64,000 nt of DNA. Source: Candidatus Dojkabacteria bacterium UBA2022 (GTDB taxonomy: Bacteria > Patescibacteriota > Dojkabacteria > SC72). The notes below the pieces were generated by a model, which worked only from the letters and a program-made list of their open reading frames with translations, searched no databases and was not told the origin of the DNA. Positions within the stretch are counted from its first letter, which is position 1; each line of letters starts with the position of its first letter. Shown here piece after piece: positions 3,289 to 60,837 of the stretch. A program made the translations under genes and the position numbers. The stretch is from NCBI GenBank assembly GCA_002335495.1, contig DDBW01000002.1, positions 9,249-73,248 of the forward strand, in the 5' to 3' direction.

Positions 3289-4056
3289 ATGAAAGATAAC
3301 CTTTCACCAAAGTCCCTCAAGAACTTTAACCTGTTCATGGGATTCATGCACTTTGTGCAGGCAGTCGCAATGCTCATCCTCGCCAAGGATTTTAAACTCC
3401 CGATCAATGTCGGATTCTTGAATTTTGATATAACCACTCAGTCCCTAGTACCAGCAACAGAAACAATCTTCGAACTTCCCCTCGTATGGCCAATCGCAGG
3501 ATTTCTCTTCCTATCAGCCCTTGCTCACCTAATAATCTCAACCGTGTACAATAAACAGTATAACGAGGATCTCGCAAATGGAATTAACAAAGCAAGATGG
3601 ATTGAGTACTCCCTCTCCGCATCAACAATGATGCTCGCAATAGCAATGTTGGTTGGAATATATGATCTAGGTTCCCTCGTAATGATATTCTCTTTGACCG
3701 CAGTAATGAATTTAATGGGATTGGTAATGGAGATCCACAATCAAACAACCAAGAAAACGAACTGGTTAAGCTATAACATAGGAGTTTTTGCCGGAGCAAT
3801 TCCTTGGTTGGTAATCGGACTATTCTTCTGGAGTGCATCAAAATATGGAACAGGAGAGATTCCAACCTTTGTATACTGGATCTATGTATCAATCTTCCTA
3901 TTCTTCAACTCCTTCGCAATCAATATGATATTGCAGTATAAAAAGGTAGGAGCATGGAACAACTACACATTCGGTGAAAGAGTCTATATAGTCCTCAGCT
4001 TGGTTGCTAAATCAGCTCTTGCATGGCAGGTATTCGCAGGAACCCTCAGACCTTAA
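3289..4056 (+). CDS. heliorhodopsin-like 7-TM retinal protein (candidate)
   Basis: 255 aa with 7 predicted TM helices. Contains '[10 protein letters not shown]' and '[21 protein letters not shown]' (Lys in TM7). I recall these as hallmark heliorhodopsin motifs, with the Schiff-base Lys in 'SLVAKS'. Recognised from memory only, not searched. Confidence 0.6.
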
Positions 4057-34659: not shown

Positions 34660-35499
34660 ATGTTTGCAAATCTTTGGGATACTCTCCTCTTTCATCCCTT
34701 CTTAAATATTTTAATGGTAGGTTACCACCTCTTGTGGGATAATCTTGGTCTTGCCGTTATTTTCATTGCTATTCTGGTAAGAGTTCTCCTTATTCCAAGT
34801 ACCAAAAGCCAGACTGAAATGACTCGTAAGATGGCTTCCCTAAGGCCAGAACTAGATAAACTTCAGAAAAAATATGCGAATAACCCTCAGAAGTTAGCAG
34901 AGGAACAGATGAAGCTATACAAAAACGTTGGTTATAATCCTCTTGGTTGTTTAGCCTCTATTCTTCCCCAATTTCTAATGCTTTTTGCGATTATTCAAGT
35001 TATTAACGTCGTTACTGTAAGTAATTTCGATGGCTTGTATCCATTCATTAAGGATTGGATATTTAGCGGGGTAGATAAAATTGTCATCAATACTTCATTC
35101 CTAAATATTGATCTTGCTTCAAACTTTACTGCTGTCTCAAAGGAACTTGGCTATATTAATTGGCAAACTTTCACCTTCTTGGTTTTGGCTGTTTTAGTAG
35201 GATTCACCCAGTTCATTTCAACCAAGTTTATGCAACATATGCAGGGACAGAATAAGCCTGCTTCAAATAAAAAAGATCCTTCTGCGGCTCCTTCTCCAGA
35301 AGAACTTCAGGCGCAGATGATGAACTCTATGAATCTGATGTTCCCATTCATGACCTTCTTCATTACCCTTACCACTCCTGCTGTTTTAGGTCTATATTGG
35401 TTAGCACAATCTGTGATGTTAATAGTTCAATACTTCATTATAGATAAAGAAAGAAGTATGAAGGCGGCTAAGGAGCTATTCAAATTTAAAAGGAAATAA
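34660..35499 (+). CDS. yidC: membrane protein insertase YidC/Oxa1 (short form)
   Basis: 279 aa. 'AIILVRVLLIP...KSQTEMTRKMASLRPELDKLQKKYANNPQKLAEEQMKLYKNVGYNPLGCL' is the YidC core TM1-TM2 region. Positively charged C-terminal tail. Confidence 0.8.
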   Translation: MFANLWDTLLFHPFLNILMVGYHLLWDNLGLAVIFIAILVRVLLIPSTKSQTEMTRKMASLRPELDKLQKKYANNPQKLAEEQMKLYKNVGYNPLGCLASILPQFLMLFAIIQVINVVTVSNFDGLYPFIKDWIFSGVDKIVINTSFLNIDLASNFTAVSKELGYINWQTFTFLVLAVLVGFTQFISTKFMQHMQGQNKPASNKKDPSAAPSPEELQAQMMNSMNLMFPFMTFFITLTTPAVLGLYWLAQSVMLIVQYFIIDKERSMKAAKELFKFKRK

Positions 35500-35516
35500 T
35501 TTTTATATTAATAATT

Positions 35517-36074
35517 ATGGATAAGAATAGAGTTTTAGAAATTGCCCAGAAGGAAACAGAAAAACTTCTTGATTTGGTCGGTGTAAATCCTGAGGTTGAG
35601 TATAACCTCGCAGATAACTCAAACGATGAGTTTGTCGTAATAGGCGTTTCGATCAAGGGAGAGGATTTAGGCTTTATGATAGGAAACCACGGAAGACATC
35701 TTCAGGCTTTTCAGTCTGTTCTTAACCTAATTGTTAGAAATATTGTTTGGAAAGAGGATGAGAATTTCAAGTTCGTTATTACAGTTGACGCTGGGGACTA
35801 CAGAAAGCAAAGAATGAATAAGGTTGAGCAAACAGCTTTACAGAAGGCTGATGATGCAAGAATTCTTGGAGAACCAGTTGATTTAATGCCTATGAATCCT
35901 GCTGAAAGAAGAGTTGTCCATACCGTTTTGGGTAAGTTTGATGATATCAAAACCGAAAGTCACGGAGAAGGTAGAGATCGATTTGTAAGGATTCTTCCCG
36001 TTAGCGAGAAGGACCTTGGAATTACCTCTGAAACAGAGGATAATCTAGAGAATGAAGAAGATTCTCAAGAATAA
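35517..36074 (+). CDS. jag: Jag/KhpB RNA-binding protein (KH + R3H)
   Basis: KH-like 'IGVSIKGEDLGFMIGNHGRHLQAFQSV' and R3H 'PMNPAERRVVHTVLGKFDDIKTESHGEGRDRFVRI'. Sits at the end of the rpmH-rnpA-yidD-yidC-jag block. Confidence 0.75.
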   Translation: MDKNRVLEIAQKETEKLLDLVGVNPEVEYNLADNSNDEFVVIGVSIKGEDLGFMIGNHGRHLQAFQSVLNLIVRNIVWKEDENFKFVITVDAGDYRKQRMNKVEQTALQKADDARILGEPVDLMPMNPAERRVVHTVLGKFDDIKTESHGEGRDRFVRILPVSEKDLGITSETEDNLENEEDSQE

Positions 36075-37407
36075 TACTAAACTTGTTGAAGCTATAGGGA
36101 GGCTACTGCCTCTCTCCCTTGCTGCAACAGTTTTCATTGCCAATATTTTCTTTATTGAGGAAAATCCTTTAAGAGGTATTACTATTCTGTTCTTACTGTT
36201 CATCTGGGGAATATTTACATATGTAACAAAATCTTATGTAAAAGCCTCGTTATATTTACTCCTATTTGTAATTCCTCTTAATATCACAATTACTTTTCCA
36301 ACCTTAGGTGATGTATACGTTCGGGGAGTGTATTCTAACTTTCTCTCTCCCACTCTCTCAATTATAGATATCTTTGTGGCTTTATTATTTACAAGCTTGG
36401 TAACAGTATCATTCCCAAAAAAGTCTAATTTGATTTATATGGTTGTTGTTGGGGCTCTGCTTTTAAGTTTACTCTCACACTTTTCGATTATATCCTTGAT
36501 CGGTATCGGAAGAATTATTCTATATCTTCTAACTACGAAGCTTATGTTTTATTATATGAAGAATGAGAAAGAGAAGTTAAGCATGAGGCTCGTTATATAT
36601 GTAATAAGTATAACTGTCCTTATACAGGTAATTATTGCTTTCTTTCAAGTTTATTTAGGTAGGGATTTAGGATTACAGTTCTTGGGAGAATCCCAGTTAA
36701 CTGTCGGAACAATTGGTTCAAGTTTTGTCTCTCTTTCTGAAGTTACCTATCTTCGTGGATACGGTACTTTCCCCCACCCTAATATTCTAGCCGGGTACCT
36801 TTCCTTAGTTGTCATTATCCTTTTGGGTATACGTTATAAAGGAAAGTTGGTTTGGGCTACGATAGGGATATCTGCTATTGGGCTTTTGCTAACTTTCTCT
36901 CGTTTAGGGTGGCTACTTCTTCTGCTTGTAATGGTGTTCTACCTATTATTTGGAAGCAGGCAACAGAAAGGGTTAAATTCATTCACCCTTGGAATTTTTG
37001 GAGAGAGAATTTCCAATCTTTTTCTAAACATAGATACCAGTTTTAGAGATAGAATATTGCTAAATGAGCATGCCATTGAGGTTATACAGAAAAACTGGTT
37101 AACAGGATTAGGGATTGGTAGGTATGTGTCCGCTATGAAAGAGCTTCCTATTTATACCAATAGTGGATTGTTGTTGCTGCAACCTGTGCATAATATCTTT
37201 CTCCTCTTGGTTGCCGAAATGGGAATTGGGGGAATTATATTCGCCATTGGGATTATATATAAAATACTGTTTTATAATTTTACAAAACATTCGAAATTTT
37301 TATATCTCTCGATTATCTTTTTTGTTTTGATATTTGGAATGTTTGATCACTTTCTTCTCACTCTTCCCCAGGGTTTAATCCTTCTTGCTTTTGCTCTTCT
37401 ACTTTAA
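36052..37407 (+). CDS. O-antigen ligase/polymerase-like (Wzy_C) polytopic membrane protein
   Basis: 451 aa with about 11 TM helices. The loop before 'FSRLGWLLLLLVMVFYL' resembles the Wzy_C signature region. Tentative. Confidence 0.45.
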   Translation: MKKILKNNTKLVEAIGRLLPLSLAATVFIANIFFIEENPLRGITILFLLFIWGIFTYVTKSYVKASLYLLLFVIPLNITITFPTLGDVYVRGVYSNFLSPTLSIIDIFVALLFTSLVTVSFPKKSNLIYMVVVGALLLSLLSHFSIISLIGIGRIILYLLTTKLMFYYMKNEKEKLSMRLVIYVISITVLIQVIIAFFQVYLGRDLGLQFLGESQLTVGTIGSSFVSLSEVTYLRGYGTFPHPNILAGYLSLVVIILLGIRYKGKLVWATIGISAIGLLLTFSRLGWLLLLLVMVFYLLFGSRQQKGLNSFTLGIFGERISNLFLNIDTSFRDRILLNEHAIEVIQKNWLTGLGIGRYVSAMKELPIYTNSGLLLLQPVHNIFLLLVAEMGIGGIIFAIGIIYKILFYNFTKHSKFLYLSIIFFVLIFGMFDHFLLTLPQGLILLAFALLL

Positions 37408-38623: not shown

Positions 38624-40645
38624 TTAGTTGGAAATCTCTTTAATGGTTACTATTATTCTCCCCTGTCTATCTGGGAAGTATCTTAACCATTCTGGGAAAT
38701 ACGCTGGAACAAAAGAGGTCTCAGTTTTTTTATCAGTATACTTCATCTTCTGTGCTCTTTTTACTCCATCTTCCCAATCTCTACCCGCAAGCTCCTTGAT
38801 GATCTCGTTCTTGCTTATCTCTGGTTTTACTTCTCCCTTGGCTACTACTTTAATTTTTATCTTATCTCCCTTGGCTTCTTCTACAGTTATTTCTCTTTCA
38901 ATGCTATTATCAAGCACCAATTTTACATTCTTATCCTCGGTTTCAAATAGGTCTTGATCTTGTGCTGACTTGGTTAACACTTCATCCATTTTTGTTTCTA
39001 ATTCGCCCTTCTTGAAATACATTGCACTCCCTTTCACCTCAATAGTCACATTAGCAATATCAGCTTCTGCTCCTACAGGGATGTCAGATTTGGTATTGCC
39101 TTCGACATCGGCTTTAAGAGTGCTCTCTATTATCTCCCATCCGTTATCAGTTCTACTTCTTAGATCATTTTTAACCTCGTCTATAGCTCCCGTCTTTATC
39201 TCCTTAACTAACTTATCTACATCAGCTTGAGATAGTACTGTATACTGTTCCTTCGATCCCCCGGCGAATGCTGATGGGTTATCTGCATTCAACTCCGTTA
39301 CTGAATTGTACCCTGCAATCGTGAAGAAATTTCCTGCGGCTATATTATATTCTTCCCCTACTTGGGTGGCTCTTACCGCGACGTTTTCTTCCCAGATATC
39401 TCCCCCTGTAGCCCCTACTGTTACGGTACTTACAATTTCGTACGTCAAATTTTCCTTTGACGTTACAACTGTTCCTGCAGGAATTGTAACGGGGAGTTTG
39501 GTAATTATATCTGGCCATGCTTTTATTGTGATTACTCCTTCTGCCTTATTACCTCTAAAGGCTTTTCCTGAAGCAGTTACCGACCCGCTGACGCTTTTAG
39601 TCCCCTCTTCTTTTTTTACTGGGACAATTCCATTCTCGTAGTTGAATTCATTTGCTTTTAGATCTCCGTTGAATACTTTTTCAACCGCAACCTCCTTACT
39701 GGTTATATACACGGTAACCTTTGCGAGAGGAGCTAATTCATATACCAACCATAATGCAACTACTAATACCGCTACTAAAGGTGCGATTATTCTAATTGCC
39801 CACTTTTTAGCTGGGGCAGAGGATATTTTTGCGCCAATATTCTTAACTATTTTTTGGAGTGGTGACATGGTAGTTGGTACATTCGCTACTCTGACTGGTA
39901 CTGGCTGCCCAAAGTCTGATTCCTCTTCTTGTTTATCCAGTGTAGAATCCACCTCGTCTGGAAGACTCTTTAAAAAGGCGATGTCTTTTCCTATTAGTGA
40001 TGGTCTTTTTTCATTCTTTGACTTCTTAAAAGCCTCTTTATTGTTATCAATGATATCCTGGTCCAATGCTAATTGTAGTCCACCCTCTTCCACTACTTTA
40101 GCCTCTTTTCTCTCAATGTTGAGTCTTGATCTTTCGAGCGCCTCTTCTATCTTTTTCTGGAACTCAGATTTCTCTTTGGCAGGTTCTTCTGCCACAACCA
40201 GTTCGTCGTCCTCGACCTCCATTTCTATCTCAGTTCTCTCAAGTTCATCTTCTCTTGGTACATATTTTACATTGCTCTTTTGCAACATATCTTGTTTCCC
40301 TTTTGTTCTTCTTCTTAGCCCTTTCTCTGCTTCATTCCAGTATTCCTCTAGGATAGTTCCTGTTGCTTCTGTTACAGTCATGCCTGCCTCTTTTGCATTT
40401 CTGACCCCAACGGGATTTTGTACTATCTGTGCAATTATTGCTTTATTATTCTCGTCTGCAGTATCAAGAAGCACTTTAAGGTTAATGGGACTTATGAGAA
40501 TATCAGTTGGTTCAGTAAAAGTGAGGATTATTTTATCAGCATCGGATAGGGCAATTTTATTTACCACATCAATTAAATCATCCTCTTTATCGATGACAAA
40601 TTTCTCTATTTCGCTTTTGATCTGTTTTATATTTTCGTCTTTCAT
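38624..40645 (-). CDS. bitopic acidic membrane protein (673 aa), hypothetical
   Basis: N-terminal cytoplasmic domain of about 120 aa, an E/K-rich coiled coil, one TM ('WAIRIIAPLVAVLVVALWLVYEL'), and an extracytoplasmic region of about 350 aa. Its start overlaps the stop of the upstream actin-like gene (shared nucleotide 40645). Confidence 0.5.
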   Translation of the reverse strand: MKDENIKQIKSEIEKFVIDKEDDLIDVVNKIALSDADKIILTFTEPTDILISPINLKVLLDTADENNKAIIAQIVQNPVGVRNAKEAGMTVTEATGTILEEYWNEAEKGLRRRTKGKQDMLQKSNVKYVPREDELERTEIEMEVEDDELVVAEEPAKEKSEFQKKIEEALERSRLNIERKEAKVVEEGGLQLALDQDIIDNNKEAFKKSKNEKRPSLIGKDIAFLKSLPDEVDSTLDKQEEESDFGQPVPVRVANVPTTMSPLQKIVKNIGAKISSAPAKKWAIRIIAPLVAVLVVALWLVYELAPLAKVTVYITSKEVAVEKVFNGDLKANEFNYENGIVPVKKEEGTKSVSGSVTASGKAFRGNKAEGVITIKAWPDIITKLPVTIPAGTVVTSKENLTYEIVSTVTVGATGGDIWEENVAVRATQVGEEYNIAAGNFFTIAGYNSVTELNADNPSAFAGGSKEQYTVLSQADVDKLVKEIKTGAIDEVKNDLRSRTDNGWEIIESTLKADVEGNTKSDIPVGAEADIANVTIEVKGSAMYFKKGELETKMDEVLTKSAQDQDLFETEDKNVKLVLDNSIEREITVEEAKGDKIKIKVVAKGEVKPEISKNEIIKELAGRDWEDGVKRAQKMKYTDKKTETSFVPAYFPEWLRYFPDRQGRIIVTIKEISN

Positions 40646-41892
40646 TAGCTACTATATTTACCTGAATTAGCAATTTTATCAAGGGCAAACAAAGTTAAGG
40701 AGGCGGGAGTGATATCGTATGTGTGGTTTAAGTCTCCACTTTCGTCAATAATATTGTCTAGTTTATCTGGATGTATAATCTCAATCTTAGGTACCGATGC
40801 GAATGGAAGAAGTTTGGTCCAAGGGAATTCCATCATTACTTCCTTAATTTCAGGTAGCAATGCACCTCCCCCGCAGAGGTATATTTTACTAGGTAGTGAT
40901 TCCAGCTCATCGGCAACCTCAAGGGATGATTTAAGGGCTTTCATCCAAACCTGAGATGTAGGATACATAACCTTTTTAACCTGTTTACCGAGCTTATCGT
41001 CAAGCTCGCCTTCTGCATATTTAACCTTCCTCAGTTCTGCATGTCTGTAATCAAGGTTAAGAGCTTTTGCTAATTGTTTTGTGAATACTCGCCCTCCGAA
41101 GGCGTACATCTGGGTATCCACTACACTCCCTCTTTGAACTACAGCCACATCTGATGTCCCTCCTCCAATATCAACAAATATTCCGGAGAAATCCTTAGAG
41201 CGGGCTCCTCTGAATGCTCTGGCTACAGCAAACGGTTGGGATACTATTCCTAGAAGGTTTAAGGAGAGAGATTTTGCTACATTCTGTAGTGCACTTGTAT
41301 ATGTTTTAGGTGCAAACGATGCGTAGAAGTATAGTTTTACATCCTTGCCTCTAAATCCTACTAGTGAATCTACACTCATTCCCCCTATCTCCATTCCAGT
41401 TATTGTTACATGAAGAATATCGATATCTTCATTTACCAACCCAGTTCTTCTTGCAAGATCTTCTTTGCCTGATTCCAGTATTTTGTTGTGTATTCTCGAG
41501 ATAATATCAGCTTGCTCTTTAGTGGTTACTTCTTCGTTAAATTTCTCTTCTCTCTCGTAGTTAACGATTATTGATACTCCTTGTATATATTCACCTGCTA
41601 TTCCCATCACAATATGCTTTGGGAGTTTAACCTCTTCCAGCCCATCTGAAATTTCGCGCATAGCTAACCTACAATTCTCAAGAACTGTATTAAGGTTCAT
41701 AATCATTCCCTTATCCATTGCATTTTGCTGCTGTTGGATACGCGCAACTTTTTCAACAACAATTTTGCCTTCCTCGTTAATATTAAAAAGGATTGCTTTA
41801 AGTACTTCTGTCCCAATATCAAGGGCAACTACTCGCTCGTCCTTTTCAACTTTCTTCTCAGATTTTTTTATGAGGTTTGGCAGTTTAATCAT
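40645..41892 (-). CDS. actin-like ATPase of the FtsA/PilM family
   Basis: Phosphate-1 'VVALDIGTEVLKA', phosphate-2 'GIFVDIGGGTSDVAVV' and adenosine 'LCGGGALLPEIK' motifs. The 415-aa length fits FtsA, but no ftsZ follows. Confidence 0.65.
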   Translation of the reverse strand: MIKLPNLIKKSEKKVEKDERVVALDIGTEVLKAILFNINEEGKIVVEKVARIQQQQNAMDKGMIMNLNTVLENCRLAMREISDGLEEVKLPKHIVMGIAGEYIQGVSIIVNYEREEKFNEEVTTKEQADIISRIHNKILESGKEDLARRTGLVNEDIDILHVTITGMEIGGMSVDSLVGFRGKDVKLYFYASFAPKTYTSALQNVAKSLSLNLLGIVSQPFAVARAFRGARSKDFSGIFVDIGGGTSDVAVVQRGSVVDTQMYAFGGRVFTKQLAKALNLDYRHAELRKVKYAEGELDDKLGKQVKKVMYPTSQVWMKALKSSLEVADELESLPSKIYLCGGGALLPEIKEVMMEFPWTKLLPFASVPKIEIIHPDKLDNIIDESGDLNHTYDITPASLTLFALDKIANSGKYSS

Positions 41893-50726: not shown

Positions 50727-52496
50727 TTAGGATATCTCTGGATTCTCCAACTTCTCAAATAGTATTTCCGCCTTGTTGAGTTTTACTCCAGGGCGGATTT
50801 CTGTAAAGTTCCAATTATTTACATGCTCTCTTACAAAACCGTTCTCTTCTAAATCATTATTTTGGTCATACTCATTCTCAATGTTTAGAAATTGGTTAAC
50901 TTTTTTCATTGAGAATGGTAGGTATGGTTTCAATAGTATTCTCAAAGCATTTACAATCTGTATATTGTTATAAATAATATGCCCAGCTAAGTTGCGATCT
51001 GTTTTTATTTTTTCCCAAGGAGCTTGGTCGTTAAAATATTTATTTGCAAATTTACCCAGCTCTAGAATATGTTCAATTGATTGTACAAACTTACACTCCT
51101 CGATACTCTTGCCAACCTTCTTAAAAGTCAGATCAATTTTCTCTCTTACCTCTTCATCTACCTCGCCTTCTGGTACGACTCCATCAAATTTATTTTCCGT
51201 GAATGTGAGGGTGCGATTTATGAAGTTACCAATATTCGCAACAAGCTCATTATTGTTGGCGTCAATTAAATCCTTCCAGGTATATTCTCTATCATGATTT
51301 TCAGGGGCATACCTTACAAAGAAGTATCTAAGCAGGTCTGGGTTATACTTATCAATTACTGCGTCTAACGTAATACCTGTTCCATCTCCTTTAGACATTT
51401 TCTTTCCCTGATACATGAGCATCTTGTTCGCAGGGACATCAAATGGAAGTTGTAGTGGGTCGTTATTGGACTCTCCAGGCAGTTTGTATTTATCTAAAAG
51501 CTCTGGTTTACTGTATTTCTGATTATATGCAACTATTTCAGCTGGCCACATAACGGTATGAAAAGGTACGTTTCCCCCTGCTACGAAATAGTAGTGTTTA
51601 CACTCTGGATCTTTCCAGAAGGTTTCCCAAAGAGAAGGTGATTCCTGCTTCTGTGCCCACTCTATTGCTGCTGACAGGTATCCTACCACAGCCTCAATCC
51701 AAACATATATTACCTTATCATCCCATCCCTCTATCGGAACTTTTATCCCAAATGAGAGATCTCTGGTTACTGCTCTTGGTTCTAGTCCTTGCTTCAGCCA
51801 CCCTCTTGTAAACTCCCTCACCCATTTCCTCCATGGTTTGTCGCTCTTCTTTATCCACTTCTCTATATCTGGCTGTAATTTGGAAAGGTTAAGGTAGAAA
51901 TGCTTTGTCTTTTTCAACTTTGGTTTTGCATCAGAAAGGGTACTGTATGGATCTATTAAATCTGTTGGGTTTAAATATGCTCCACATTCTGGGCATTCAT
52001 CCCCTCTTGCATTTGTTGCTCCACATTTAGGACATGTGCCTTTTACATATCTGTCTGGCAAAAATCTTTTTACTTTGGCGTCGTAGTACTGTTCTGATTC
52101 TTTTATATCCAAAAAACCTAACTCATTTAGAACCATAAAGATATTCTGAACTACCTCTCGGTGATTATCGGTTGTGGTCTTAGTGTAGTTCTCATAAAGA
52201 AGCCCGAGTTTTTTAAATGTTTCTACAATCTTTTCATGAGAATCTTCGGCAAGCTTGTTAGGGGTTATTCCAAGGTCTTCTGCTTTAGCCAGTATTGGTG
52301 CTCCGTGGCTATCGCTTCCTGATACCATTAAAACCTGGTTTCCTTTTAATCTATGGTAACGAGCAAATACATCTGTGACAATATTCTGTCCTGCCAAATG
52401 TCCAAGGTGAATATTTCCATTGGCGTATGGCCAGGAGACTCCAATAAATATTTTTTCAGGCTTGCCATTTTTGACTTGCATAATTGTATTATACAA
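50727..52496 (-). CDS. metG: methionyl-tRNA synthetase
   Basis: HIGH 'ANGNIHLGHLAG', zinc knuckle 'CPKCG...CPECG', KMSKS 'KMSKGDG'. 589 aa. Confidence 0.9.
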   Translation of the reverse strand: MYNTIMQVKNGKPEKIFIGVSWPYANGNIHLGHLAGQNIVTDVFARYHRLKGNQVLMVSGSDSHGAPILAKAEDLGITPNKLAEDSHEKIVETFKKLGLLYENYTKTTTDNHREVVQNIFMVLNELGFLDIKESEQYYDAKVKRFLPDRYVKGTCPKCGATNARGDECPECGAYLNPTDLIDPYSTLSDAKPKLKKTKHFYLNLSKLQPDIEKWIKKSDKPWRKWVREFTRGWLKQGLEPRAVTRDLSFGIKVPIEGWDDKVIYVWIEAVVGYLSAAIEWAQKQESPSLWETFWKDPECKHYYFVAGGNVPFHTVMWPAEIVAYNQKYSKPELLDKYKLPGESNNDPLQLPFDVPANKMLMYQGKKMSKGDGTGITLDAVIDKYNPDLLRYFFVRYAPENHDREYTWKDLIDANNNELVANIGNFINRTLTFTENKFDGVVPEGEVDEEVREKIDLTFKKVGKSIEECKFVQSIEHILELGKFANKYFNDQAPWEKIKTDRNLAGHIIYNNIQIVNALRILLKPYLPFSMKKVNQFLNIENEYDQNNDLEENGFVREHVNNWNFTEIRPGVKLNKAEILFEKLENPEIS

Positions 52497-52541: not shown

Positions 52542-53108
52542 ATGCCAGCGAAAATTAAACGAAGAACAATAAACCTCTTAGAACCTATTGGTGCCCCTGC
52601 CGACACTTGGAGTGCGATATATGCATGGGTGTTCAATGTTGGTAGATATCTTATGTTGGCAATTGAAATCATCGTTTTGGTTGTATTCTTCTCCCGATTT
52701 GTATTGGATCGACAGAATCATGATCTCACCGAGGAGATCAATGATAAGGCTTTTCTATTGTCTAACCAAAATTTCAGACTTGAAGAGGTTCGATATAAGA
52801 ACACACACTTAGTTTTAAACGATATATATCGATTATCGAATGGGCAGCCTCTAAACTCTGAAGATATAGCTTTACTTCTCAGCTCAGTACCAAGTGGTCT
52901 GACTCTTGATAAGTTTGCATACAATAATGGAAGAGTTTCGCTTACTGTTGTAGGAAGCGACATCTCAACAATTAGAGATTATGAATTCTCACTAAGACAG
53001 AATACCAACTATGAAAATGTTACATTTACAGTATCAAGGTCTGGGGTCAGTAAAGCCGATTATGATGTTGTGATTTCTCTAACGGTTAAGTTACAGGAGG
53101 ATAAATAA
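52542..53108 (+). CDS. pilN: type IV pilus assembly protein PilN-like
   Basis: N-terminal 'RRTINLLEP' (the conserved INLLP PilM-binding motif), one TM, and a periplasmic domain. 188 aa. Confidence 0.55.
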   Translation: MPAKIKRRTINLLEPIGAPADTWSAIYAWVFNVGRYLMLAIEIIVLVVFFSRFVLDRQNHDLTEEINDKAFLLSNQNFRLEEVRYKNTHLVLNDIYRLSNGQPLNSEDIALLLSSVPSGLTLDKFAYNNGRVSLTVVGSDISTIRDYEFSLRQNTNYENVTFTVSRSGVSKADYDVVISLTVKLQEDK

Positions 53109-53707
53109 TGGCAGAGTCAAAAGGAGTTGGATATCTAAAAATTATAAACGGTTCGGTTCAAAATAAAACATATAGTTTTGCTGTCTTTACCGTTATTGTT
53201 GTAATTGTTCTCCTTGTAGGAGCTATTCGCCCTACCCTTCTAACTATTACGAAGATTAACAAGGATATAGAGGAAAAAACTTTGATTAATGAACAATTGG
53301 ATTCTAAGCTTGATAATCTTGCGAGATTGAATAGTCAGTACAGTGAACGAAACGAGGATATTGAAGTGCTTCCACTTATGTTCCCAACTCAAGGTAACTT
53401 TAGTCTTTTTATGTCTAATATTGAAACCATAGCAAAATCAAATGGATATACCTTAAATTCTATAACTTTTGGTAGTCCGAATGATCTTGATTATAAATAT
53501 ACAGTTCTCAAACCATGGATTGCTCGTATTACAGTCACAGGTAACCGATCAAATATCGTAAAGCTACTAAGTGCATATGAGAGTATGCCTATGTATCCGA
53601 TTGTAAATAAGCTCTCATTTGCTAGAAACGCTTCTGCAGGGGGACTTGCTCAATTTAGTGTCGACCTTGTTATCTTTAGAATAGATGATCCTAACTTTTA
53701 TAACTAA
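53108..53707 (+). CDS. pilO: type IV pilus assembly protein PilO-like
   Basis: TM, then a coiled coil ('KDIEEKTLINEQLDSKLDNLARLNSQYSE') and a C-terminal domain. Translationally coupled to the pilN-like gene (ATGA overlap). Confidence 0.45.
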   Translation: MAESKGVGYLKIINGSVQNKTYSFAVFTVIVVIVLLVGAIRPTLLTITKINKDIEEKTLINEQLDSKLDNLARLNSQYSERNEDIEVLPLMFPTQGNFSLFMSNIETIAKSNGYTLNSITFGSPNDLDYKYTVLKPWIARITVTGNRSNIVKLLSAYESMPMYPIVNKLSFARNASAGGLAQFSVDLVIFRIDDPNFYN

Positions 53708-53712
53708 ATACT

Positions 53713-53958
53713 ATGAAACTTAATGCCATACCTGTCTTAATTCTCCTTTTGATTGTGACTGTTGCATGGGTTGGTTTTAGTATATATTTTAATAGTACCG
53801 AGCTTGATATTGACCCTAATGCTACCAGCTACATGCAGAATATAAATCCTGTTTTCGATGTAAGAGGGTTGGATGATTTAATGGAAAGAAGTGAAGAAAA
53901 TCTCCCAATATCTCCTGATGAGTTTTTGAATGCTGTTAATCCTACCGATTCAGAGTAG
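53713..53958 (+). CDS. small membrane-anchored protein (81 aa), possibly a pilus-assembly accessory
   Basis: N-terminal TM plus an acidic tail. Position fits a PilP-like slot, but there is no sequence evidence. Confidence 0.25.
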   Translation: MKLNAIPVLILLLIVTVAWVGFSIYFNSTELDIDPNATSYMQNINPVFDVRGLDDLMERSEENLPISPDEFLNAVNPTDSE

Positions 53959-53961
53959 GTA

Positions 53962-55053
53962 CTAGCTGCTTATGTAGTTATTGAGTTTCTTTGCGGATGA
54001 TTTTTCCTTTAGTTTTTTGAGAGCCTTGGCTTCAATCTGTCTGATACGCTCTCTTGTTACTCCAAACTCTTTTCCAACCTCTTCCAAAGTTCTGGTTACT
54101 CCATCTTCTAATCCAAACCTTAAGGATAGCACTCTTCTCTCTCTCTCCTGGAGGGTATCCAAAATCTCATGAATTTGGTTCTTTAGATATTCTAATGTGG
54201 CATACTCCTCTGGTGATTGAGACCAATCGTCAGGGATTATATCCAGTAACTGGCTGTCCTTTTCATCTCCAATCGGAGTTTGTAGGGAAGATGGATTTTG
54301 AGATATTTTTCTAATTTCAACAACCTTCTCGAGCTCAATATCCATTTCTTTTGCAATTTCCTGATCGGTTGGTTTTCTTCCAAGTTTGGTAGTTAAGGTC
54401 GAGTTCACTTTGTTGAACTTATTAATAGTTTCAATCATGTGCACTGGAATACGGATAGTTCTAGCCTGGTCTGCGATTGCTCTTGTAATTGCTTGTCTTA
54501 TCCACCAAGTTGCATAGGTTGAGAACTTAAAACCTCGTAAGTAGTCGAACTTTTCAACAGCGCGCATCAATCCCATATTTCCTTCCTGAATAAGGTCGAG
54601 AAGTTCAAGGCCGCTTTTTGCATACTTCTTTGCGATGCTAACTACGAGTCTAAGGTTTGCAGTTATCAAAAGCTGTGATGCTTCTTTATCTCCTGCCTCG
54701 AGTCTTTTTGCTAAGATGACTTCTTCTTCTCCTGTTAAAAGAGGAATTTTTCCAATTTCGTACAGGTATGATCTGATTGCATCGGTTGAAAGATTTGATT
54801 GTATGGTTTTAAGGATCCGGATTTTTTTCTCAAGGGTTAACTCTTCTTCTGAAGCTCCCTTGCCAGTTGTTTCATCCGCTTCGATTACTTCAATCCCTTC
54901 CTGCTGAAGTTTTTGGAATACCTGGTCAACTAACTCAATATCTTCTTCCAAGGTTGGAAGTTGTGAAAGGATATCGTCTTGGGTTAGGAATCCTTGCTCA
55001 AGACCTTTCTCAATTAGCTTTTTAATGGAAGCTTGATTCGAGTCTGTTGTCAT
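53962..55053 (-). CDS. rpoD: RNA polymerase sigma-70 factor (primary sigma)
   Basis: Region 2 '[54 protein letters not shown]', region 3 and region 4.2 '[27 protein letters not shown]'. Confidence 0.9.
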
Positions 55054-55077
55054 ATTTTTGTGTGGTATAATTTAAAT

Positions 55078-55434
55078 ATGATAAATAAACGAACTAGGAG
55101 AACAAAAGAGAAAGTTTCATCGGATAATCTTAACTTTTTTATTGAAGCCATCGCTAAGTTTTGTGATAAGTGTGGCTCTCCTTATACCGTTGATAATTTG
55201 CAAATTATTAAAGATAATGATTTCTCGAGCATTATACACTTCTCCTGTAATAATTGTAAATCCCGTCATATTGCAACTTTTGTTAAACCTATGGGTGTAA
55301 GCAGTCGAATGCCTGTTAATAGTGACTTGAGTGTGGATGAAATTGCTAAGTTTTCTAAAGGTTCCGCGATTCCTGTTGATGATATTCTCACTGTTTATAG
55401 TATGCTTTCCAAGGATCCTGTTATAAAAATATAA
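55078..55434 (+). CDS. zinc-ribbon hypothetical protein
   Basis: Two CxxC pairs ('CDKCGSPY', 'CNNCKSRH'). An extended -10 promoter 'TGGTATAAT' sits at 55061-55069. The ORF's upstream in-frame extension (from 55033) is rejected. Confidence 0.4.
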   Translation: MINKRTRRTKEKVSSDNLNFFIEAIAKFCDKCGSPYTVDNLQIIKDNDFSSIIHFSCNNCKSRHIATFVKPMGVSSRMPVNSDLSVDEIAKFSKGSAIPVDDILTVYSMLSKDPVIKI

Positions 55435-55437
55435 CAA

Positions 55438-58400
55438 TTATTTCCTATTCCACACGAGTTTAAAATTATTATCAGACTTCTCCTTTATTTGAGTTAGAAG
55501 TTGGTTGAGAACATTATCCATGCCTGAAGGATCAATAACTGCCCATGTATCAGGGTAAGTTATGTTTACAGACAGAGTATCCTCTGAACCGGTTCCGGGT
55601 TGTTTGAAAGTTGATAACACAAATTCAATATCCTGGTTGCTTACAGAGAGAGGTTTGTAAGTGCTTTCAGGAGTTAGGCTATACTTAATTTCTAGCGTCT
55701 TTGATGTTTGTATTGGGACATTTAACCATCCACCAACCACTTTATAGCCATTTTCCAGATAGATCTGGTAATCAGTATCTGTAAATCCTTTAATAGATTT
55801 TATCTGTGCACTTTCAGGAAGGTATGCTCTTACATAGTTAGTATAATCTCCTAATGGGTATACTTTGCTTGTTGCAGAGTTTCTTAGTACCAGCTGGTAG
55901 GTATAATCAACCTTGTCTATATCTAAAATGTCTATATTAAGGGTTTTACTCCTCTCAACTTTCGTATTCACTTTATTCGCTCCCCAGTTCCATTCAATTG
56001 TAAGAGGGGCTGATTTATATTTTTCTCCTAAAGTTCCTGCCCATCCGTTCTGTTCTAAGTAATCGTATGCTTCTAAGTTTTTAAGATATACATTTATATG
56101 TTTTGAGTTCAAAGAATCAATCATAGCTGTTCCAATCTTTGGATAATCCTCTACCTTGGCAGATAGCACACGCTGCAAAAGAGTGTTAGCTAAGTTGGCT
56201 AGGAAAGGTGCTTTCAAACTTTCGCCGGGGGTAAACTGTTTATGTAAATTGGTAATTCTTTCGTCAAGATTATCTGCCGTCACTGGCTGAGTTTCCCCAG
56301 GGATAATAACTTCATCCCAAACGGTTAAGAGGGCTTTTAATACTTCAGTGTCTATCGCAATTGTTCCATCGAGTTCGGTCCCTGGGTCTACTTTATCCAT
56401 AAGGGATTCATTTATCGCAGTTACATTCTGTAAATCAGGCTCCCAGTTTGAAAGTGAGAAGGTGAAGTTTTCAACCTCAAGCGCCTTGCGCATTGATTGA
56501 GGAGGTAACACTTTTATGTCGTTATTAATTAGGCGACCGTCTAGGTTGTAGATGTCGTCAACTTTTAATTCTCTAATCTGGCCTCCTTCAAAGGAGATCA
56601 ACGCGTAGCTTGATAGCCAGCCTCCTGTGCTGCGCAATTCGGCAGGGTTTTGCAGGAGTATAAGGTATCTAACTCGCTTTTCGTTTCCAAGGACATCAGG
56701 CAGGAATGTTATTACTTTTTCAACTGGGTCTATCTGGGATTTAAGCTGGTCGTTATATTCTTTTAGTACAATGATGTAATTCTGTACCGGAGTTGGGAAT
56801 ACAGACACTTTTACATTCTCGATCAAGTCTGAGGCAATATTTACATTGTATACTCCTTTTTGCAGCAGGGAACGGTTCTGTTTGAGCTGGGTTAGATATT
56901 CCCGGTACTCGCGACTGGAAGAAGGTAAGTCTGTTTGAAAGTTTAATGCCGGCTCAAAATTCTGCACATATAATGAAAGTGGTTCTATGGCTGTCATAAT
57001 ATCTCTCGCTCCTTGAATGCCATATTGGCTTGCAAATACGAGTTGAGTGAAATTGTCGTATGTCTCTTCTGTCCCAGTTGCCTGGAAGGCCCATTTAAGT
57101 TGTCCCAACGACGAACTTATCTTAGTTAGATAGTTCTCAGATTTTACCAACTGAGAGTTGGCATCATCTAACTTGAACTCTAGGGCATAATCTTTTGCTT
57201 TATCCAGAGACTTGTAAGTAAGGTATCCCCCTAAACCTAACGAGAAGAGTGGGTAGAGAAGGAATATAAATAGAAGGGTTGTTAGAACTACGCCGATGCT
57301 TAGATATCCTATCTTTAATGGGGTGAGACTTGATTTGAATTTTTGTACTTTATTAGATCCGCTTCGACTGATTCTTTTAAATGGACGGGCTATTGTATCA
57401 AGTAGCTCTCCAAGTGGAGTTTTTACATTTTTTACTTTTACTACTACTTCCTCTTCAACTTTTTTAGGTTCTTCCCTTTTTCTTTTTATAATCTGGCCTG
57501 TCTTTGGATATAACTTGTTGATAGTGTCAACAATTGTTTGTTCAAGAGTTACGGTTTGTTTCCATCCAAAATTGGATGCGTTAGGAGCTGGAATGTAGTG
57601 CTCATAACTTATATACTTCGAATCGGTCTTTGTGGGGCCGAATTTAATATCAGATATGTCGTCGTTAATTTCTAATAACTTGTATGCAAGAGATAGCGTT
57701 GTGTAATCATTTTGGTTGGTTAGGGATATAACCTCTCCCTCCGTTTTATTTTGAAAGGTTAACTTCAAAATCCCGTAAATTGCATCCTCAATGTTTATTA
57801 GGTAGTGCAACTGAAGGCCTTCTCCATATATAGTTATAAACCCTTTATTTGAGCTGTCATTTAGAAGGTCTTCTATAATTGGATCTGTTATCTCTGCTAT
57901 CTCACTTCCAAGGAGGGTTCCTAGTCTAATTATTCTGGCGTTCATCTTTGATTTATCACGATATTCGGCGGTTAGAGTTTCGCAGTATTTTTGAAGCTCG
58001 ATTGCAGAATATGGGGCTGGAGCAGAAAGATTTGAATTTAAAATGTGTGCTGAGAGCTTCTCGTTAAGTTTGATTGAAGTTACGAGAGCTACTTTAGAGT
58101 CGTTCTTCTGTGCAACTTTCAGGGTTTGATTTAGGTAGTTTGATTCTTCCAAGAAGTCTTTGCTTGAAAAAGTATCGTGTTCTAAAAGTTTTTCTGATAG
58201 TAGATAGTAGATATAGTCAATTCTTCCCAAGGTTTTATAGAGAGCTTCAATTCCCGTGAAATCTATAAAATCGGCATTGCCAATTTTCTTAAGTTCACTA
58301 ACAAAACCCTTAGATCGGCTGTTGAAGTTATCTACTATTATGACTTGTCCTCCTTGCTCTAAAAGGGTTTTTGCTAGCTTAAAGCCAAGGGGGTTACCAC

Positions 58401-58473
58401 CGTGGACGACTACTGATACTGTCGTACTAACTTTTATTTCAGAATATTTACTCGCCATTACTTTGTTCTTCAA
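55438..58473 (-). CDS. fusion protein: N-terminal NAD(P)-binding epimerase/dehydratase-like domain + TM + large DUF4012-like extracytoplasmic domain (1011 aa)
   Basis: N-terminal Rossmann 'VVVHGGNPLGFKLAKTLLEQGGQVIIVDNF'. TM 'IGYLSIGVVLTTLLFIFLLYPLF'. The C-terminal region has 'RYLILLQNPAELRSTGGWLSSYALISFEGG', which resembles the DUF4012 core. Confidence 0.7.
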   Translation of the reverse strand: MKNKVMASKYSEIKVSTTVSVVVHGGNPLGFKLAKTLLEQGGQVIIVDNFNSRSKGFVSELKKIGNADFIDFTGIEALYKTLGRIDYIYYLLSEKLLEHDTFSSKDFLEESNYLNQTLKVAQKNDSKVALVTSIKLNEKLSAHILNSNLSAPAPYSAIELQKYCETLTAEYRDKSKMNARIIRLGTLLGSEIAEITDPIIEDLLNDSSNKGFITIYGEGLQLHYLINIEDAIYGILKLTFQNKTEGEVISLTNQNDYTTLSLAYKLLEINDDISDIKFGPTKTDSKYISYEHYIPAPNASNFGWKQTVTLEQTIVDTINKLYPKTGQIIKRKREEPKKVEEEVVVKVKNVKTPLGELLDTIARPFKRISRSGSNKVQKFKSSLTPLKIGYLSIGVVLTTLLFIFLLYPLFSLGLGGYLTYKSLDKAKDYALEFKLDDANSQLVKSENYLTKISSSLGQLKWAFQATGTEETYDNFTQLVFASQYGIQGARDIMTAIEPLSLYVQNFEPALNFQTDLPSSSREYREYLTQLKQNRSLLQKGVYNVNIASDLIENVKVSVFPTPVQNYIIVLKEYNDQLKSQIDPVEKVITFLPDVLGNEKRVRYLILLQNPAELRSTGGWLSSYALISFEGGQIRELKVDDIYNLDGRLINNDIKVLPPQSMRKALEVENFTFSLSNWEPDLQNVTAINESLMDKVDPGTELDGTIAIDTEVLKALLTVWDEVIIPGETQPVTADNLDERITNLHKQFTPGESLKAPFLANLANTLLQRVLSAKVEDYPKIGTAMIDSLNSKHINVYLKNLEAYDYLEQNGWAGTLGEKYKSAPLTIEWNWGANKVNTKVERSKTLNIDILDIDKVDYTYQLVLRNSATSKVYPLGDYTNYVRAYLPESAQIKSIKGFTDTDYQIYLENGYKVVGGWLNVPIQTSKTLEIKYSLTPESTYKPLSVSNQDIEFVLSTFKQPGTGSEDTLSVNITYPDTWAVIDPSGMDNVLNQLLTQIKEKSDNNFKLVWNRK

Positions 58474-59095
58474 TATTTATAGGAATAGGAAAGAGATTTA
58501 CCTTTACATTCAAATTGTATCCCTCTCTTACAATAACAGGAAATTCTACATTTTCGTACCCCGTTTTACTCACCTTCACGCTATACGACTTTGGGTTGGC
58601 CATGTAGGCGTTTATAGGGGCCTTGTCAGCATACTCTCCATCAATATAGACAGTTGCGTCAGCGGGATCTGTATTAACGCTAAGATATCCCTTTCCGTTC
58701 GATACAGGAGATTTCGTATAGTATAGTATGTAACCAGATGATAAATTGTTTGGTCCAATCTCAAGGTCAATAACTGCTTCTGTATTTCTCTCGAGATCAA
58801 TATCAATGTATCTATCTTCATATGCTCCCGAAACATCGGTTATTCTGGTTAGTTTGAAGGTGTATCTTCCAGGTTTTAAATCTGAAATTGTAACAGGAGT
58901 TTCTCCATAGCTTTTAGAGTCAAGAAAAACTTCTGACTTTGCATTTCTGCTAGTAATCGTAATTGTTGTGTTGTTGTAGAATTCACTGATGTATGGAAGA
59001 CGGGCTAGGATATCATCAAAGGGTATAAAAAATACTCCTATGGAGATAACAAATACCGCTAATATGATAATTATGGCAGTTTTAAGATTTGGCAT
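58448..59095 (-). CDS. membrane-anchored PEGA-domain protein
   Basis: N-terminal TM, then two PEGA-like beta-sandwich repeats ('LKPGRYTFKLTR...', 'ANPKSYSVKVSKTGYENVEFPVIVREGYNLNVKVNL'). Confidence 0.55.
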   Translation of the reverse strand: MPNLKTAIIIILAVFVISIGVFFIPFDDILARLPYISEFYNNTTITITSRNAKSEVFLDSKSYGETPVTISDLKPGRYTFKLTRITDVSGAYEDRYIDIDLERNTEAVIDLEIGPNNLSSGYILYYTKSPVSNGKGYLSVNTDPADATVYIDGEYADKAPINAYMANPKSYSVKVSKTGYENVEFPVIVREGYNLNVKVNLFPIPINIEEQSNGE

Positions 59096-59137
59096 AATTT
59101 GATTATATGCTACGGAATAGACCTTGTCTAGCTTGAT

Positions 59138-60385
59138 TTAATAGGAATATTTGGACTCAGGACTCTCTTGGCTAACTCGTTTAGCCTCCTCCTCTTTTTT
59201 CTTTTGAGCTTTCTTATTTAGAATTACTATTCCAAGTAGAGTTACGAAAAGGATAAATAGGAGGAAGAAGAATTTATATGCGCCGGTAGTTAGAACGGCG
59301 ACAACTCCAAAGAAAACTGCAATAGTGGTTTCTACCAGTAGAATTTGGGGAGGAGTTAAGTTCATGTTGTAGAGTTGGTGGTGAAGATGCATAGGACCGT
59401 TTATTCTCATCAATTCTATGAAGTTCTTTGGTTTATATGTTCTGTATCGGTGGATAATTACATAAAGGGCATCTATAAGTGGGATTGCTAAAATGATTAT
59501 TGTAGCCGCTACTTTCGCTCCATTCACTAGTGCGAGTACCGCTATTATAAATCCGTACATTGTTTTTCCAGTCGATCCTGTAAATATCTTCGCTGGAGGG
59601 AAATCGAATATCCATCCCCCGGCAATTCCCCCTGCCAATGCTATAGAAGTGTAGGTTACAAGTAGGCTTTCGGCTCTTATTCCTAATACAAACATCATCA
59701 GGTATGCCACAATCATGTTACTTTCAAGTAATCCTCCTATTCCTCCCACCCATTTAACTGCATTTGTACAAAGCATAATCCAGAAAATTAATAGTAGATC
59801 TCCTGGTAAGATGAGGCGGAGAGTTATATCTAGTATATTTCCATCAATTTGCCACCAATTAAGGTTGAAAGTGCCGCCTAAAGGGTTGTTTATAAATGGT
59901 ATATCAATAGCAGATATTGCAATAACTGTTGAAGCTACTAGTTGTCCTGCAAGCTGAATAGGGGCTGGGAGGTTGTATACGTCATCCAATATTCCGATTA
60001 TTAGTAGGATTACTCCGGCGGTTAAAAACGGTATTACTAACTCATTGTTCGTAATAAGCAACGGGATACTTAGTAGTAATGGAAGCAGGACTGCAACCCC
60101 CCCTAGTAGTGGAGTGGGAGTTTTATGGATAGCCTTAATTCCTTGCGTTTGGTCATATGGATTCAGCTTCTCTACTCTCATTTGGGCGGGTAGATCTATT
60201 GCGTTTACCTTCTGAGCAATTCTGGCAATGATTGGTTTTAAAAGTAGAACGAGAATAAAAAATATTAGAAATACTGGGGCAAATTGAAGATACTTCATGT
60301 AATTTTCTGGAATATTAGGGTATTGCTCTGCTTTTAACAGAATATTTTGTAGTAGGTTTGTAGCATTAATAAGAAGTTCTCCCAT
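59138..60385 (-). CDS. polyprenyl-phosphate N-acetylhexosamine-1-phosphate transferase family (MraY/WecA-like), divergent
   Basis: 'GILDDVYNL' is the DDxxD motif and 'NAVKWVGGIGGL' aligns to the conserved 'NAxNxxDGxDGL' motif. About 10 TM helices. Confidence 0.6.
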   Translation of the reverse strand: MGELLINATNLLQNILLKAEQYPNIPENYMKYLQFAPVFLIFFILVLLLKPIIARIAQKVNAIDLPAQMRVEKLNPYDQTQGIKAIHKTPTPLLGGVAVLLPLLLSIPLLITNNELVIPFLTAGVILLIIGILDDVYNLPAPIQLAGQLVASTVIAISAIDIPFINNPLGGTFNLNWWQIDGNILDITLRLILPGDLLLIFWIMLCTNAVKWVGGIGGLLESNMIVAYLMMFVLGIRAESLLVTYTSIALAGGIAGGWIFDFPPAKIFTGSTGKTMYGFIIAVLALVNGAKVAATIIILAIPLIDALYVIIHRYRTYKPKNFIELMRINGPMHLHHQLYNMNLTPPQILLVETTIAVFFGVVAVLTTGAYKFFFLLFILFVTLLGIVILNKKAQKKKEEEAKRVSQESPESKYSY

Positions 60386-60837
60386 TAGTAACTTTGAACA
60401 ATTTTAATAAGATGATATGTGAGAAGTATGGTACTAAGTAGTGTTATATAAAGTAGAAATTTTACTAGAATTTTCTCCTTATTAAACCATTTATAGCTTA
60501 AAAGTATGGAGGACAGTACTAGTAATGCGGTTAACCCTGGGACTACAAATAAAAACTGTCTATCAATAAGCTTCATTGCATCAATATTGTAGTACTCAAC
60601 AAGCGGGATTTTTGTAGGAAGTTCTGGTACCTTGCCCATCAGTATCCATGTTTGTAAGGCAAGCATGGATATTGTCAAAGTATTAATTATCCAAACCGTT
60701 GCATCTTTTGCGTACTTCATCAGCTCAAATACCTTGAAAGAATCTGATATTTTGGCATTTACAGATGTAAGATAATTGCTGAAAGGGGATTTAAGTCCCA
60801 GGCTTAGTTGTTTTGCTTCCTCTTTTTTCTTTTTCAC
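60385..60837 (-). CDS. small membrane protein (4 TM), hypothetical
   Basis: 150 aa. Its stop overlaps the start of the downstream MraY-like gene. Confidence 0.35.
   Translation of the reverse strand: MKKKKEEAKQLSLGLKSPFSNYLTSVNAKISDSFKVFELMKYAKDATVWIINTLTISMLALQTWILMGKVPELPTKIPLVEYYNIDAMKLIDRQFLFVVPGLTALLVLSSILLSYKWFNKEKILVKFLLYITLLSTILLTYHLIKIVQSY

Follow-up and report, generated by a model that had tools for sequence, protein, structure and literature searches.

A conserved SDR–TM–DUF4012 fusion and its PEGA partner in a putative envelope glycopolymer locus of Dojkabacteria

Introduction

WbpM, PglF and CapD are membrane-tethered sugar-nucleotide dehydratases in which N-terminal transmembrane (TM) helices precede an intact short-chain dehydrogenase/reductase (SDR) domain (PF02719). 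Here we analyse a 64,000-nucleotide stretch of Candidatus Dojkabacteria bacterium UBA2022 (GenBank assembly GCA_002335495.1, contig DDBW01000002.1, positions 9,249–73,248), hereafter the window, in which a gene of a four-gene minus-strand array joins an SDR-like domain through one TM helix to a large ectodomain of the DUF4012 family. As in WbpM, PglF and CapD, an SDR-fold domain would sit at the cytoplasmic membrane face in a surface-glycan pathway; those proteins lack a large ectodomain, whereas the fusion runs SDR–TM–ectodomain and has lost its catalytic residues. We propose, with a probability of about 0.5, that the array is a clade-standard envelope glycopolymer or wall-assembly unit of Dojkabacteria (WS6), which belong to the candidate phyla radiation (CPR).

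The extended SDRs GalE, UDP-xylose synthase, UDP-GlcA 4-epimerase, Mth375 and GDP-mannose 3,5-epimerase have the same two-lobed fold as the N-terminal part of the fusion (Foldseek E ~1e-16, TM-score 0.6–0.7). They share with it the β2 Asp and the triad Ser/Thr, and a KRxAE-type helix is recognisable in relatives of the fusion. By contrast, the fusion has no catalytic Tyr, this clade carries Gln for Lys and HGGNxLG for GxxGxxG, and the SDR domain is tethered via the TM helix to a 600-residue ectodomain. The LCP (LytR-CpsA-Psr) proteins TagT/U/V, Cps2A and MsrR, which transfer glycopolymers to peptidoglycan, resemble the fusion in being bitopic and N-in/C-out with an extracytoplasmic α/β domain, and their genes lie in wall-glycopolymer loci adjoining PCP/Wzz-type genes. 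Unlike the fusion, they contain no cytoplasmic SDR domain; there is no significant sequence relationship, and the LCP motifs RSD, PRD and YxRxR are unmatched by the DUF4012 invariants. Polyprenyl-phosphate HexNAc-1-P transferases (PNPTs), comprising MraY, WecA/TagO and eukaryotic and archaeal GPT, share LDD, HxHH and a polytopic plan with the product of the third gene of the array, a Glycos_transf_4 (GT4) protein, which differs from MraY and WecA in having no Mg2+-binding Asp and in Lys and Gly replacing Asn and Asp of a conserved motif.

DUF4012 itself has been met in a polysaccharide context. In the exopolysaccharide (EPS) locus of Bifidobacterium longum 105-A, the gene for the DUF4012 protein BL105A_0406 lies between those for a priming transferase and Wzz (PMC5412050). 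The Bifidobacterium protein and the fusion share the DUF4012 core and the order membrane anchor, then large extracytoplasmic domain, and both in Bifidobacterium and in CPR bacteria DUF4012 genes adjoin polysaccharide-assembly genes (priming transferase and Wzz in the former; Wzz-like, Wzy and Wzx in the latter). The Bifidobacterium gene is ~1.7 kb long and is listed with DUF4012 only and no SDR domain, whereas the fusion has ~390 cytoplasmic residues (SDR-like domain plus linker) before its TM helix and is partnered by a PEGA protein, not Wzz. The family (fam000574) is over-represented among CPR and Gram-positive bacteria (Meheust et al. 2019, PMC6744442) and is among those that separate these two groups from other bacteria (PMC6744442).

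Results

The fusion is a standard architecture of Dojkabacteria

The initial annotation had placed three consecutive minus-strand genes here, and open reading frames (ORFs) and Pfam matches agree exactly with its coordinates and domains; a gene for a 150-aa membrane protein is the fourth of the array. In window positions, the features are:

55438–58473, minus strand: SDR–TM–DUF4012 fusion gene, 1011 aa (ORF, Pfam, orthologues)
57469–58428, minus strand: extended-SDR-like cytoplasmic domain of the fusion, aa ~16–335 (AlphaFold2, Foldseek, motif columns)
57256–57312, minus strand: predicted single TM helix of the fusion, aa 388–406 (hydropathy, flanking charges)
56674–57201, minus strand: long-helix bundle of the fusion, predicted extracytoplasmic, aa 425–600
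56008–56673, minus strand: DUF4012 α/β core of the fusion, aa 601–822
55441–56004, minus strand: C-terminal β-sandwich domain of the fusion, aa 824–1011
58448–59095, minus strand: gene for a membrane-anchored protein with two PEGA domains, 215 aa (ORF, Pfam)
59102–59130, minus strand: predicted sigma-70-type promoter TAGACA-N17-TATAAT (sequence scan, conservation across loci)
59138–60385, minus strand: GT4 gene, atypical PNPT homologue, 415 aa (ORF, Pfam)
60385–60837, minus strand: gene for the 150-aa membrane protein (ORF, hydropathy, conserved position)

A homologue search of 5.8 billion proteins with the fusion protein returned 211 matches. The best 120 of these 211 are 988–1027 aa long and cover 97–100% of the query at 39–99% identity; those that carry names are from Candidatus Dojkabacteria (WS6), and the Joint Genome Institute (JGI) label on such proteins is 'nucleoside-diphosphate-sugar epimerase'. 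Relatives were found in at least 114 GTDB species by a scan of one genome per species that reached the Dojkabacteria clade only. When a family profile was run against 1.84 billion cluster representatives (50% identity), 4032 matched at E ≤ 1e-30. Among the best 150 clusters, about 128 are full-length fusions (889–1221 aa, nearly all 950–1110), mostly aligned in a single end-to-end stretch, with identity falling to ~22%. Judged by these matches, the SDR–TM–DUF4012 architecture is a large, old CPR family, standard rather than rare, and not the unusual fusion it was first taken for.

These data also settle whether the 1011-aa ORF might be a misassembled or frameshifted join of an epimerase gene and a DUF4012 gene. 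Nothing was found that favours such a join other than the rarity of the architecture in well-studied bacteria. The ORF is continuous, containing neither a stop nor a frameshift, and linker and TM helix hold invariant residues. More than 120 assemblies, the 114 species and ~128 of the best 150 clusters agree on it. Since the same architecture and length recur across independent assemblies, the fusion is no assembly artefact; cross-assembly conservation refutes the join, whose chance is practically nil, and the fusion reported initially is real. Its start is probably ATG 58458 (1006 aa), not TTG 58473, as in P0001, a 99%-identical database protein. A terminator scan of the minus strand of the window gave nothing meaningful.

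The complete gene order KsgA, 150-aa protein, GT4, PEGA, fusion, zinc-ribbon ORF (convergent) and RpoD was present in 61 of 82 loci, and nearly all of the incomplete ones are interrupted by contig ends. The locus is an ordinary, clade-typical gene set of Dojkabacteria and no one-off oddity, and the array probably supplies an envelope factor present throughout the clade. The convergent 133-aa ORF (55033–55434, plus strand) ends 3 nt from the end of the fusion gene, has weak zinc-ribbon matches and keeps its position in nearly all Dojkabacteria loci. Many metagenome-assembled genome records (our loci L003 and L006–L010, among others) have the Dojkabacteria-type gene and show full Dojkabacteria synteny under the title 'uncultured Candidatus Saccharibacteria bacterium', a label that is probably a generic placeholder.

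Gene neighbourhoods suggest a role in envelope glycopolymers

Outside Dojkabacteria, fusion contexts were compared in eight loci, L083–L090. A gene for a Wzz-like protein of 170–206 aa with two TM segments lies directly upstream of the fusion in L084, L085 and L090, although the similarity is weak and below the Pfam cut-off (E 6e-5, 2.6e-4 and 2.7e-3). Wzy_C is encoded within a few genes of the fusion in L085, L086 and L090, and a Wzx flippase in L090. In this window none of Wzz, Wzy and Wzx adjoins the fusion; Wzy_C lies 18 kb off (36052–37407). Together with the B. longum locus and the enrichment of DUF4012 in CPR and Gram-positive bacteria, these neighbourhoods are the best evidence for a role in envelope glycopolymer assembly.

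Some of the same contexts could be read differently, with the unit as a protein envelope scaffold (surface-layer anchoring, a pilus-associated structure or a divisome/elongasome spacer), its PEGA protein and DUF4012 ectodomain as structural parts and the dead SDR domain as a docking site, cytoskeletal or cytoplasmic. PEGA domains typically occur in surface-layer-like proteins, most of the ectodomain is helical bundle and β-sandwich with no recognisable catalytic site, the Dojkabacteria neighbours include FtsK, RodZ-like and PilN/PilO-like genes, and one distant fusion has type IV secretion genes as neighbours. The Bifidobacterium EPS locus and the presence of Wzz-like, Wzy_C and Wzx genes near the fusion in other CPR bacteria nevertheless indicate glycans, and the DUF4012 core is rich in invariant polar residues, as enzymes and ligand binders are. 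We consider a pure scaffold unlikely and prefer a glycopolymer role.

The distant fusion beside type IV secretion genes is P0164 (1221 aa), which in L089 (4276–9684) adjoins genes of the PrgI/TraC/TraG type and dnaN; L089 is the sole context examined that lacks an envelope-glycan or PEGA neighbour. The Wzy_C gene of the window belongs to a run of consecutive YidC, Jag/KhpB (KH and R3H domains) and Wzy_C genes (34660–37407, plus strand; 18 kb from the fusion), and in L084–L086, from other CPR lineages, this trio directly adjoins the SDR–DUF4012 fusion gene.

A single membrane span leads to a predicted DUF4012 ectodomain

Hydropathy analysis gave one hydrophobic span in the fusion (aa 388–406), preceded by a K/R-rich stretch. 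A charged linker leads up to it, and the juxtamembrane motif KTxLGxF...PF is conserved, with T352, G355 and P408 invariant. Because a folded domain of 390 residues without signal peptide precedes the sole TM helix, an N-in/C-out orientation is predicted, which is the only reasonable topology and bears out the cytoplasmic and extracytoplasmic assignments made initially.

DUF4012 (PF13196) matches aa 601–737 with 69.3 bits (cut-off 28; E 6.7e-19), a region that contains LILLQNPAELRSTGGWLSSYAL, the sequence quoted in the initial annotation. The ectodomain model (aa 425–1011; predicted local distance difference test score (pLDDT) 89.4) consists of a helix bundle, an α/β core and a β-sandwich. Conserved motifs of the core are YLxLxQNxxELRxTGG, VDDxYNxDG, SNWxPD, VDGxIAxD and FxPGSxxK, and the invariant polar residues are N609, E612, R614, D640, N676, N735 and K754, with one invariant Arg only. 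All of 16 diverse core segments match DUF4012 (best E 1e-30), and none of them matches another Pfam family at E up to 10. A sequence and profile search of the PDB found no relative of the core (best E 0.23, spurious). Structure searches paired the ectodomain helices with generic bundles, and Foldseek against the PDB gave partial β-sandwich matches only (TMq ~0.2).

We compared the core with LCP proteins by hhalign. Small alignments gave 35 columns at 1.6% probability and larger ones a colinear match of 132 columns at 31% probability (E 5e-4). Both cover the same strand–helix–strand element, VDGxIAxDL..LL..GPI in DUF4012 and IDYYVxVNF..LVDALGGV in LCP. DUF4012 cores match neither the LCP Pfam family (PF03816) at E up to 10 nor an LCP sequence in the PDB, and the Arg and Asp invariants of LCP (R15, D17, R38, D39, R130, R132, R142 and R145) have no DUF4012 counterpart. 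An LCP-like fold of the core is thus no more than a lead, and the data do not support placing DUF4012 in the LCP family.

The extended-SDR domain has lost its catalytic residues

The N-terminal domain scores as Epimerase (PF01370; 29.7 bits, cut-off 20.9; aa 29–241). An AlphaFold2 model with the family alignment has a pLDDT of 92.9 and a predicted TM-score (pTM) of 0.91, and every one of its best Foldseek matches in the PDB is a nucleotide-sugar enzyme of the extended-SDR type (E 1e-16 to 1e-14, 14–21% identity), among them GDP-mannose 3,5-epimerase, Mth375, UDP-glucuronate 4-epimerase, UDP-xylose synthase (UXS) and RmlB. The Rossmann fold originally assigned to this domain is thereby confirmed. 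NCBIfam returned no equivalog for the fusion, the best score being 18.5 bits.

Catalytic columns were read from a MAFFT alignment of 129 diverse fusions with E. coli and P. horikoshii GalE as anchors; hhalign of the fusion family against E. coli GalE aligned the first 46 residues alone. Tyr occupies the catalytic Tyr column in only 4 of the 129, the commoner residues being His (29), Glu (17), Leu (17), Phe (14) and Asn (12); the window has Ala157. At the catalytic Lys, 69 carry Lys and 45 Gln (Gln161 in the window), and any Y...K in the catalytic region is confined to five fusions. The middle Gly of GxxGxxG (GalE Gly10) is kept in 58 and replaced by Asn in 28 and Ser in 20, and is Asn27 in the window, where the dinucleotide motif reads V-H-G-G-N-P-L-G instead of the Gly-rich TGxxGxxG. 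Two positions have been retained: the adenosine-ribose Asp of β2 (GalE Asp31; Asp in 127; Asp48 in the window) and the catalytic Ser/Thr (Ser in 84, Thr in 27; Ser133 in the window).

The losses are correlated. GxxGxxG is intact in 57 fusions, 52 of which keep the Lys (consensus S-H-H-E-A-K-R-F-A-E), while 44 of the 45 with Gln at the Lys position have also lost the middle Gly. The window fusion is of the fully degenerate SDR subtype, with a clade consensus of HGGNxLG and PYSNIELQKYCE; 56 of 76 clade members have Asn in the middle-Gly column. The pattern suggests stepwise loss, of Tyr in the family as a whole and of Lys and Gly as well in the degenerate subtype. Within Dojkabacteria, the N-terminal domain is more conserved than the C-terminal part (45–79% against 36–72% identity to the query), and it is therefore under selection and functional. 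With catalytic Tyr, Lys and the middle Gly of the dinucleotide motif gone, it is most likely a non-catalytic module for ligand binding, docking or scaffolding and no NAD-dependent epimerase. Of the coupling suggested initially, between nucleotide-sugar modification and an extracellular polymer step, the envelope-glycopolymer side is plausible (EPS locus; Wzz, Wzy and Wzx neighbours) and the nucleotide-sugar catalysis unlikely (Tyr, Lys and Gly lost).

A missing Tyr is no proof of inactivity. SDR enzymes of the CapE type work with MxxxK and without Tyr. Asp48 and Ser133 are kept here, and 52 of the 129 relatives retain GxxGxxG and Lys and have a conserved His in place of Tyr, so that nucleotide binding, and even unusual chemistry, may be possible. 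The domain could then be an active epimerase, dehydratase or decarboxylase with non-canonical residues that couples sugar-nucleotide modification to an extracytoplasmic polymer step. An Epimerase score above the Pfam cut-off, a complete two-lobed extended-SDR fold and strong conservation that includes invariants of its own (Y155, E159, Q161, Y163 and E165) fit such an enzyme. Yet Tyr is missing family-wide, this clade has Gln for Lys and Asn for the middle Gly, so that all three hallmarks of NAD hydride transfer are altered together, and no NCBIfam equivalog applies. We regard an active enzyme as distinctly improbable and retain the non-catalytic assignment.

The state of the SDR domain also goes with the partner gene. 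In the small sample at hand, degenerate (Gln) SDR domains have a PEGA partner and those that keep the NAD motif a Wzz-like one. The fusion family may accordingly comprise two subtypes, one Wzz-partnered that keeps the NAD motif and one PEGA-partnered and fully degenerate.

The PEGA gene and the fusion gene form a core pair

The PEGA protein scores 85.8 bits over two PEGA (PF08308) stretches and has one N-terminal hydrophobic anchor (aa 8–26), which predicts an extracytoplasmic location. Its gene overlaps at the 3' end with the beginning of the fusion gene. In Dojkabacteria loci a PEGA gene immediately precedes the fusion, and the same arrangement is seen for distant fusions of ~25–30% identity in L083 and L087 (unrelated contexts; UvrC and MoxR genes adjoin the L083 fusion) and in L088, from a sister lineage.

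Within the 42 nt that separate the GT4 and PEGA genes is TAGACA-N17-TATAAT, whose −10 box stops 6 nt short of the PEGA ATG. Of 78 PEGA-bearing loci, 63 carry this promoter, with a spacer of 16–17 nt throughout; the −10 box ends 6–10 nt before the PEGA ATG in all 63 and 6–8 nt before it in 60. Across the 2.2 Mb of loci examined, the motif has only 89 occurrences. We read this as a strong phylogenetic footprint. The 6–8-nt distance predicts a leaderless PEGA–fusion mRNA, and the two genes probably form an operon with a shared promoter and leaderless transcript. Their overlap, recurrence at a distance, own promoter and the conservation of that promoter across loci make PEGA and fusion the core pair. 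The initial annotation had treated three genes as one tight module; the conserved unit is this pair, and in the loci examined the GT4 and 150-aa genes stand beside it only in Dojkabacteria and one sister lineage.

The GT4 protein is an atypical PNPT homologue

The GT4 protein matches Glycos_transf_4 (PF00953) with 75.6 bits and has ~10 hydrophobic segments in a hydropathy scan. On these grounds it is certainly a member of the PNPT superfamily. It had been called an MraY/WecA homologue, which holds at the superfamily level; its NCBIfam scores fall far short of either equivalog (WecA 56.7 against a cut-off of 326; MraY 33.2 against 192), and the Mg2+-binding Asp is missing.

E. coli MraY (EcMraY) and WecA served as references in an alignment of 72 orthologues. 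LDD (EcMraY D115/D116) is kept in at least 90% of them, and HxHH (as HLHH) is also conserved. In place of VFMGDxGS, the window has KIFTGSTGK and the orthologues the consensus KIxTGSxGK, in which Ser takes the position of EcMraY D267. D267 is the Mg2+-binding catalytic Asp of EcMraY (residue roles from PMC5039524). The motif NAxNxxDGxDGL is replaced by NAVKWVGGIGGL in the window and by NAvKWxxGxxG in the consensus; across NxxNxxDGxDG, the second Asn has become Lys and both Asp have become Gly or Pro; the changes of Asn to Lys and of Asp to Gly are seen in at least 90% of the orthologues. The AGxxG form of the motif recalls eukaryotic GPT. The same Lys and Ser replacements occur in the sister lineage, and the protein looks like a selected variant, not a product of decay. 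Naming it MraY or WecA is unjustified, and its activity as a PNPT is uncertain.

The 150-aa membrane protein has no Pfam match; orthologues were found in 69 loci at a conserved position. Its stop codon overlaps the GT4 start (TAATG), which suggests that the two genes are translationally coupled.

A proposed role in the envelope

In the model we favour, the DUF4012 ectodomain would bind or process a lipid-linked or wall-linked polymer, which we infer to be a glycopolymer, at the outer membrane face. Its role might be comparable to that of LCP/CpsA-like accessory or ligase proteins in Gram-positive Wzx/Wzy pathways, LCP-like chemistry being likewise inferred. The PEGA protein could serve as its wall- or surface-layer-facing partner, and the dead SDR domain would, in a non-catalytic role, bind either a cytoplasmic partner or a ligand of the nucleotide type. 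The 150-aa protein and the atypical PNPT may supply a lipid-linked primer, with the PNPT's activity again in question for want of the Mg2+-binding Asp.

Several points count against this model. The topology is predicted, not measured; we found no experiment on any DUF4012 protein in the literature; and the sample of contexts outside Dojkabacteria is small. The synteny of GT4 with the core pair may reflect class-wide conservation of gene order only, because the flanking genes are housekeeping genes (DnaG, KsgA and RpoD).

A more specific version is conceivable, in which SDR–DUF4012 is a trans-envelope pseudoenzyme coupler. The dead epimerase would sense a nucleotide-sugar or NAD(H), or dock a priming transferase, and through the TM helix and helical bundle gate the attachment or release of wall glycopolymer by an LCP-like DUF4012 ectodomain; the PEGA subtype would work with a PNPT whose Mg2+ site is a Lys/Ser pair. 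We think this a long shot. If true, it would be an undescribed regulatory logic for wall-glycopolymer assembly in ultra-small bacteria.

The envelopes of CPR/Patescibacteria are almost unstudied, and the conserved fusion and promoter are testable handles. Both fusion domains are already recognised by automatic annotation, whose label for these proteins, 'nucleoside-diphosphate-sugar epimerase', probably gives them the wrong enzyme name; like caution applies to MraY/WecA as a name for GT4. In the papers we found, the fusion, the stepwise residue loss, the partner subtypes, the leaderless promoter and the atypical PNPT are undescribed, and a literature search on PEGA and Patescibacteria gave nothing relevant.

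Other features of the window

The genes dnaN (27890–29017) and dnaA (29492–30937), both on the minus strand, indicate that the window spans a probable replication-origin region; in several other CPR lineages, too, the fusion gene is found close to dnaA/dnaN. Downstream of rpoD on the other strand, 52542–53958 (plus strand) holds weak PilN-like (E 9e-4) and PilO-like (E 2e-4) ORFs and an 81-aa ORF. A PilM/FtsA-like ORF is found at 40645–41892 (minus strand), adjoined by a 673-aa ORF without Pfam match (38624–40645). The 2411-aa ORF at 4757–11992 (minus strand), with DUF2341, fibronectin type III and CarboxypepD_reg-like domains, is probably a surface protein.

Methionyl-tRNA synthetase (50727–52496, minus strand) has 589 aa here, and its orthologue in WS6 GW2011_GWF2_39_15 (L001, 13968–16106) has 712 aa with an extra C-terminal tRNA_bind domain. 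At 3289–4056 (plus strand), this Dojkabacteria genome encodes a full-length heliorhodopsin of 255 aa (PF18761, E 2.9e-97, 242 of 242 profile positions).

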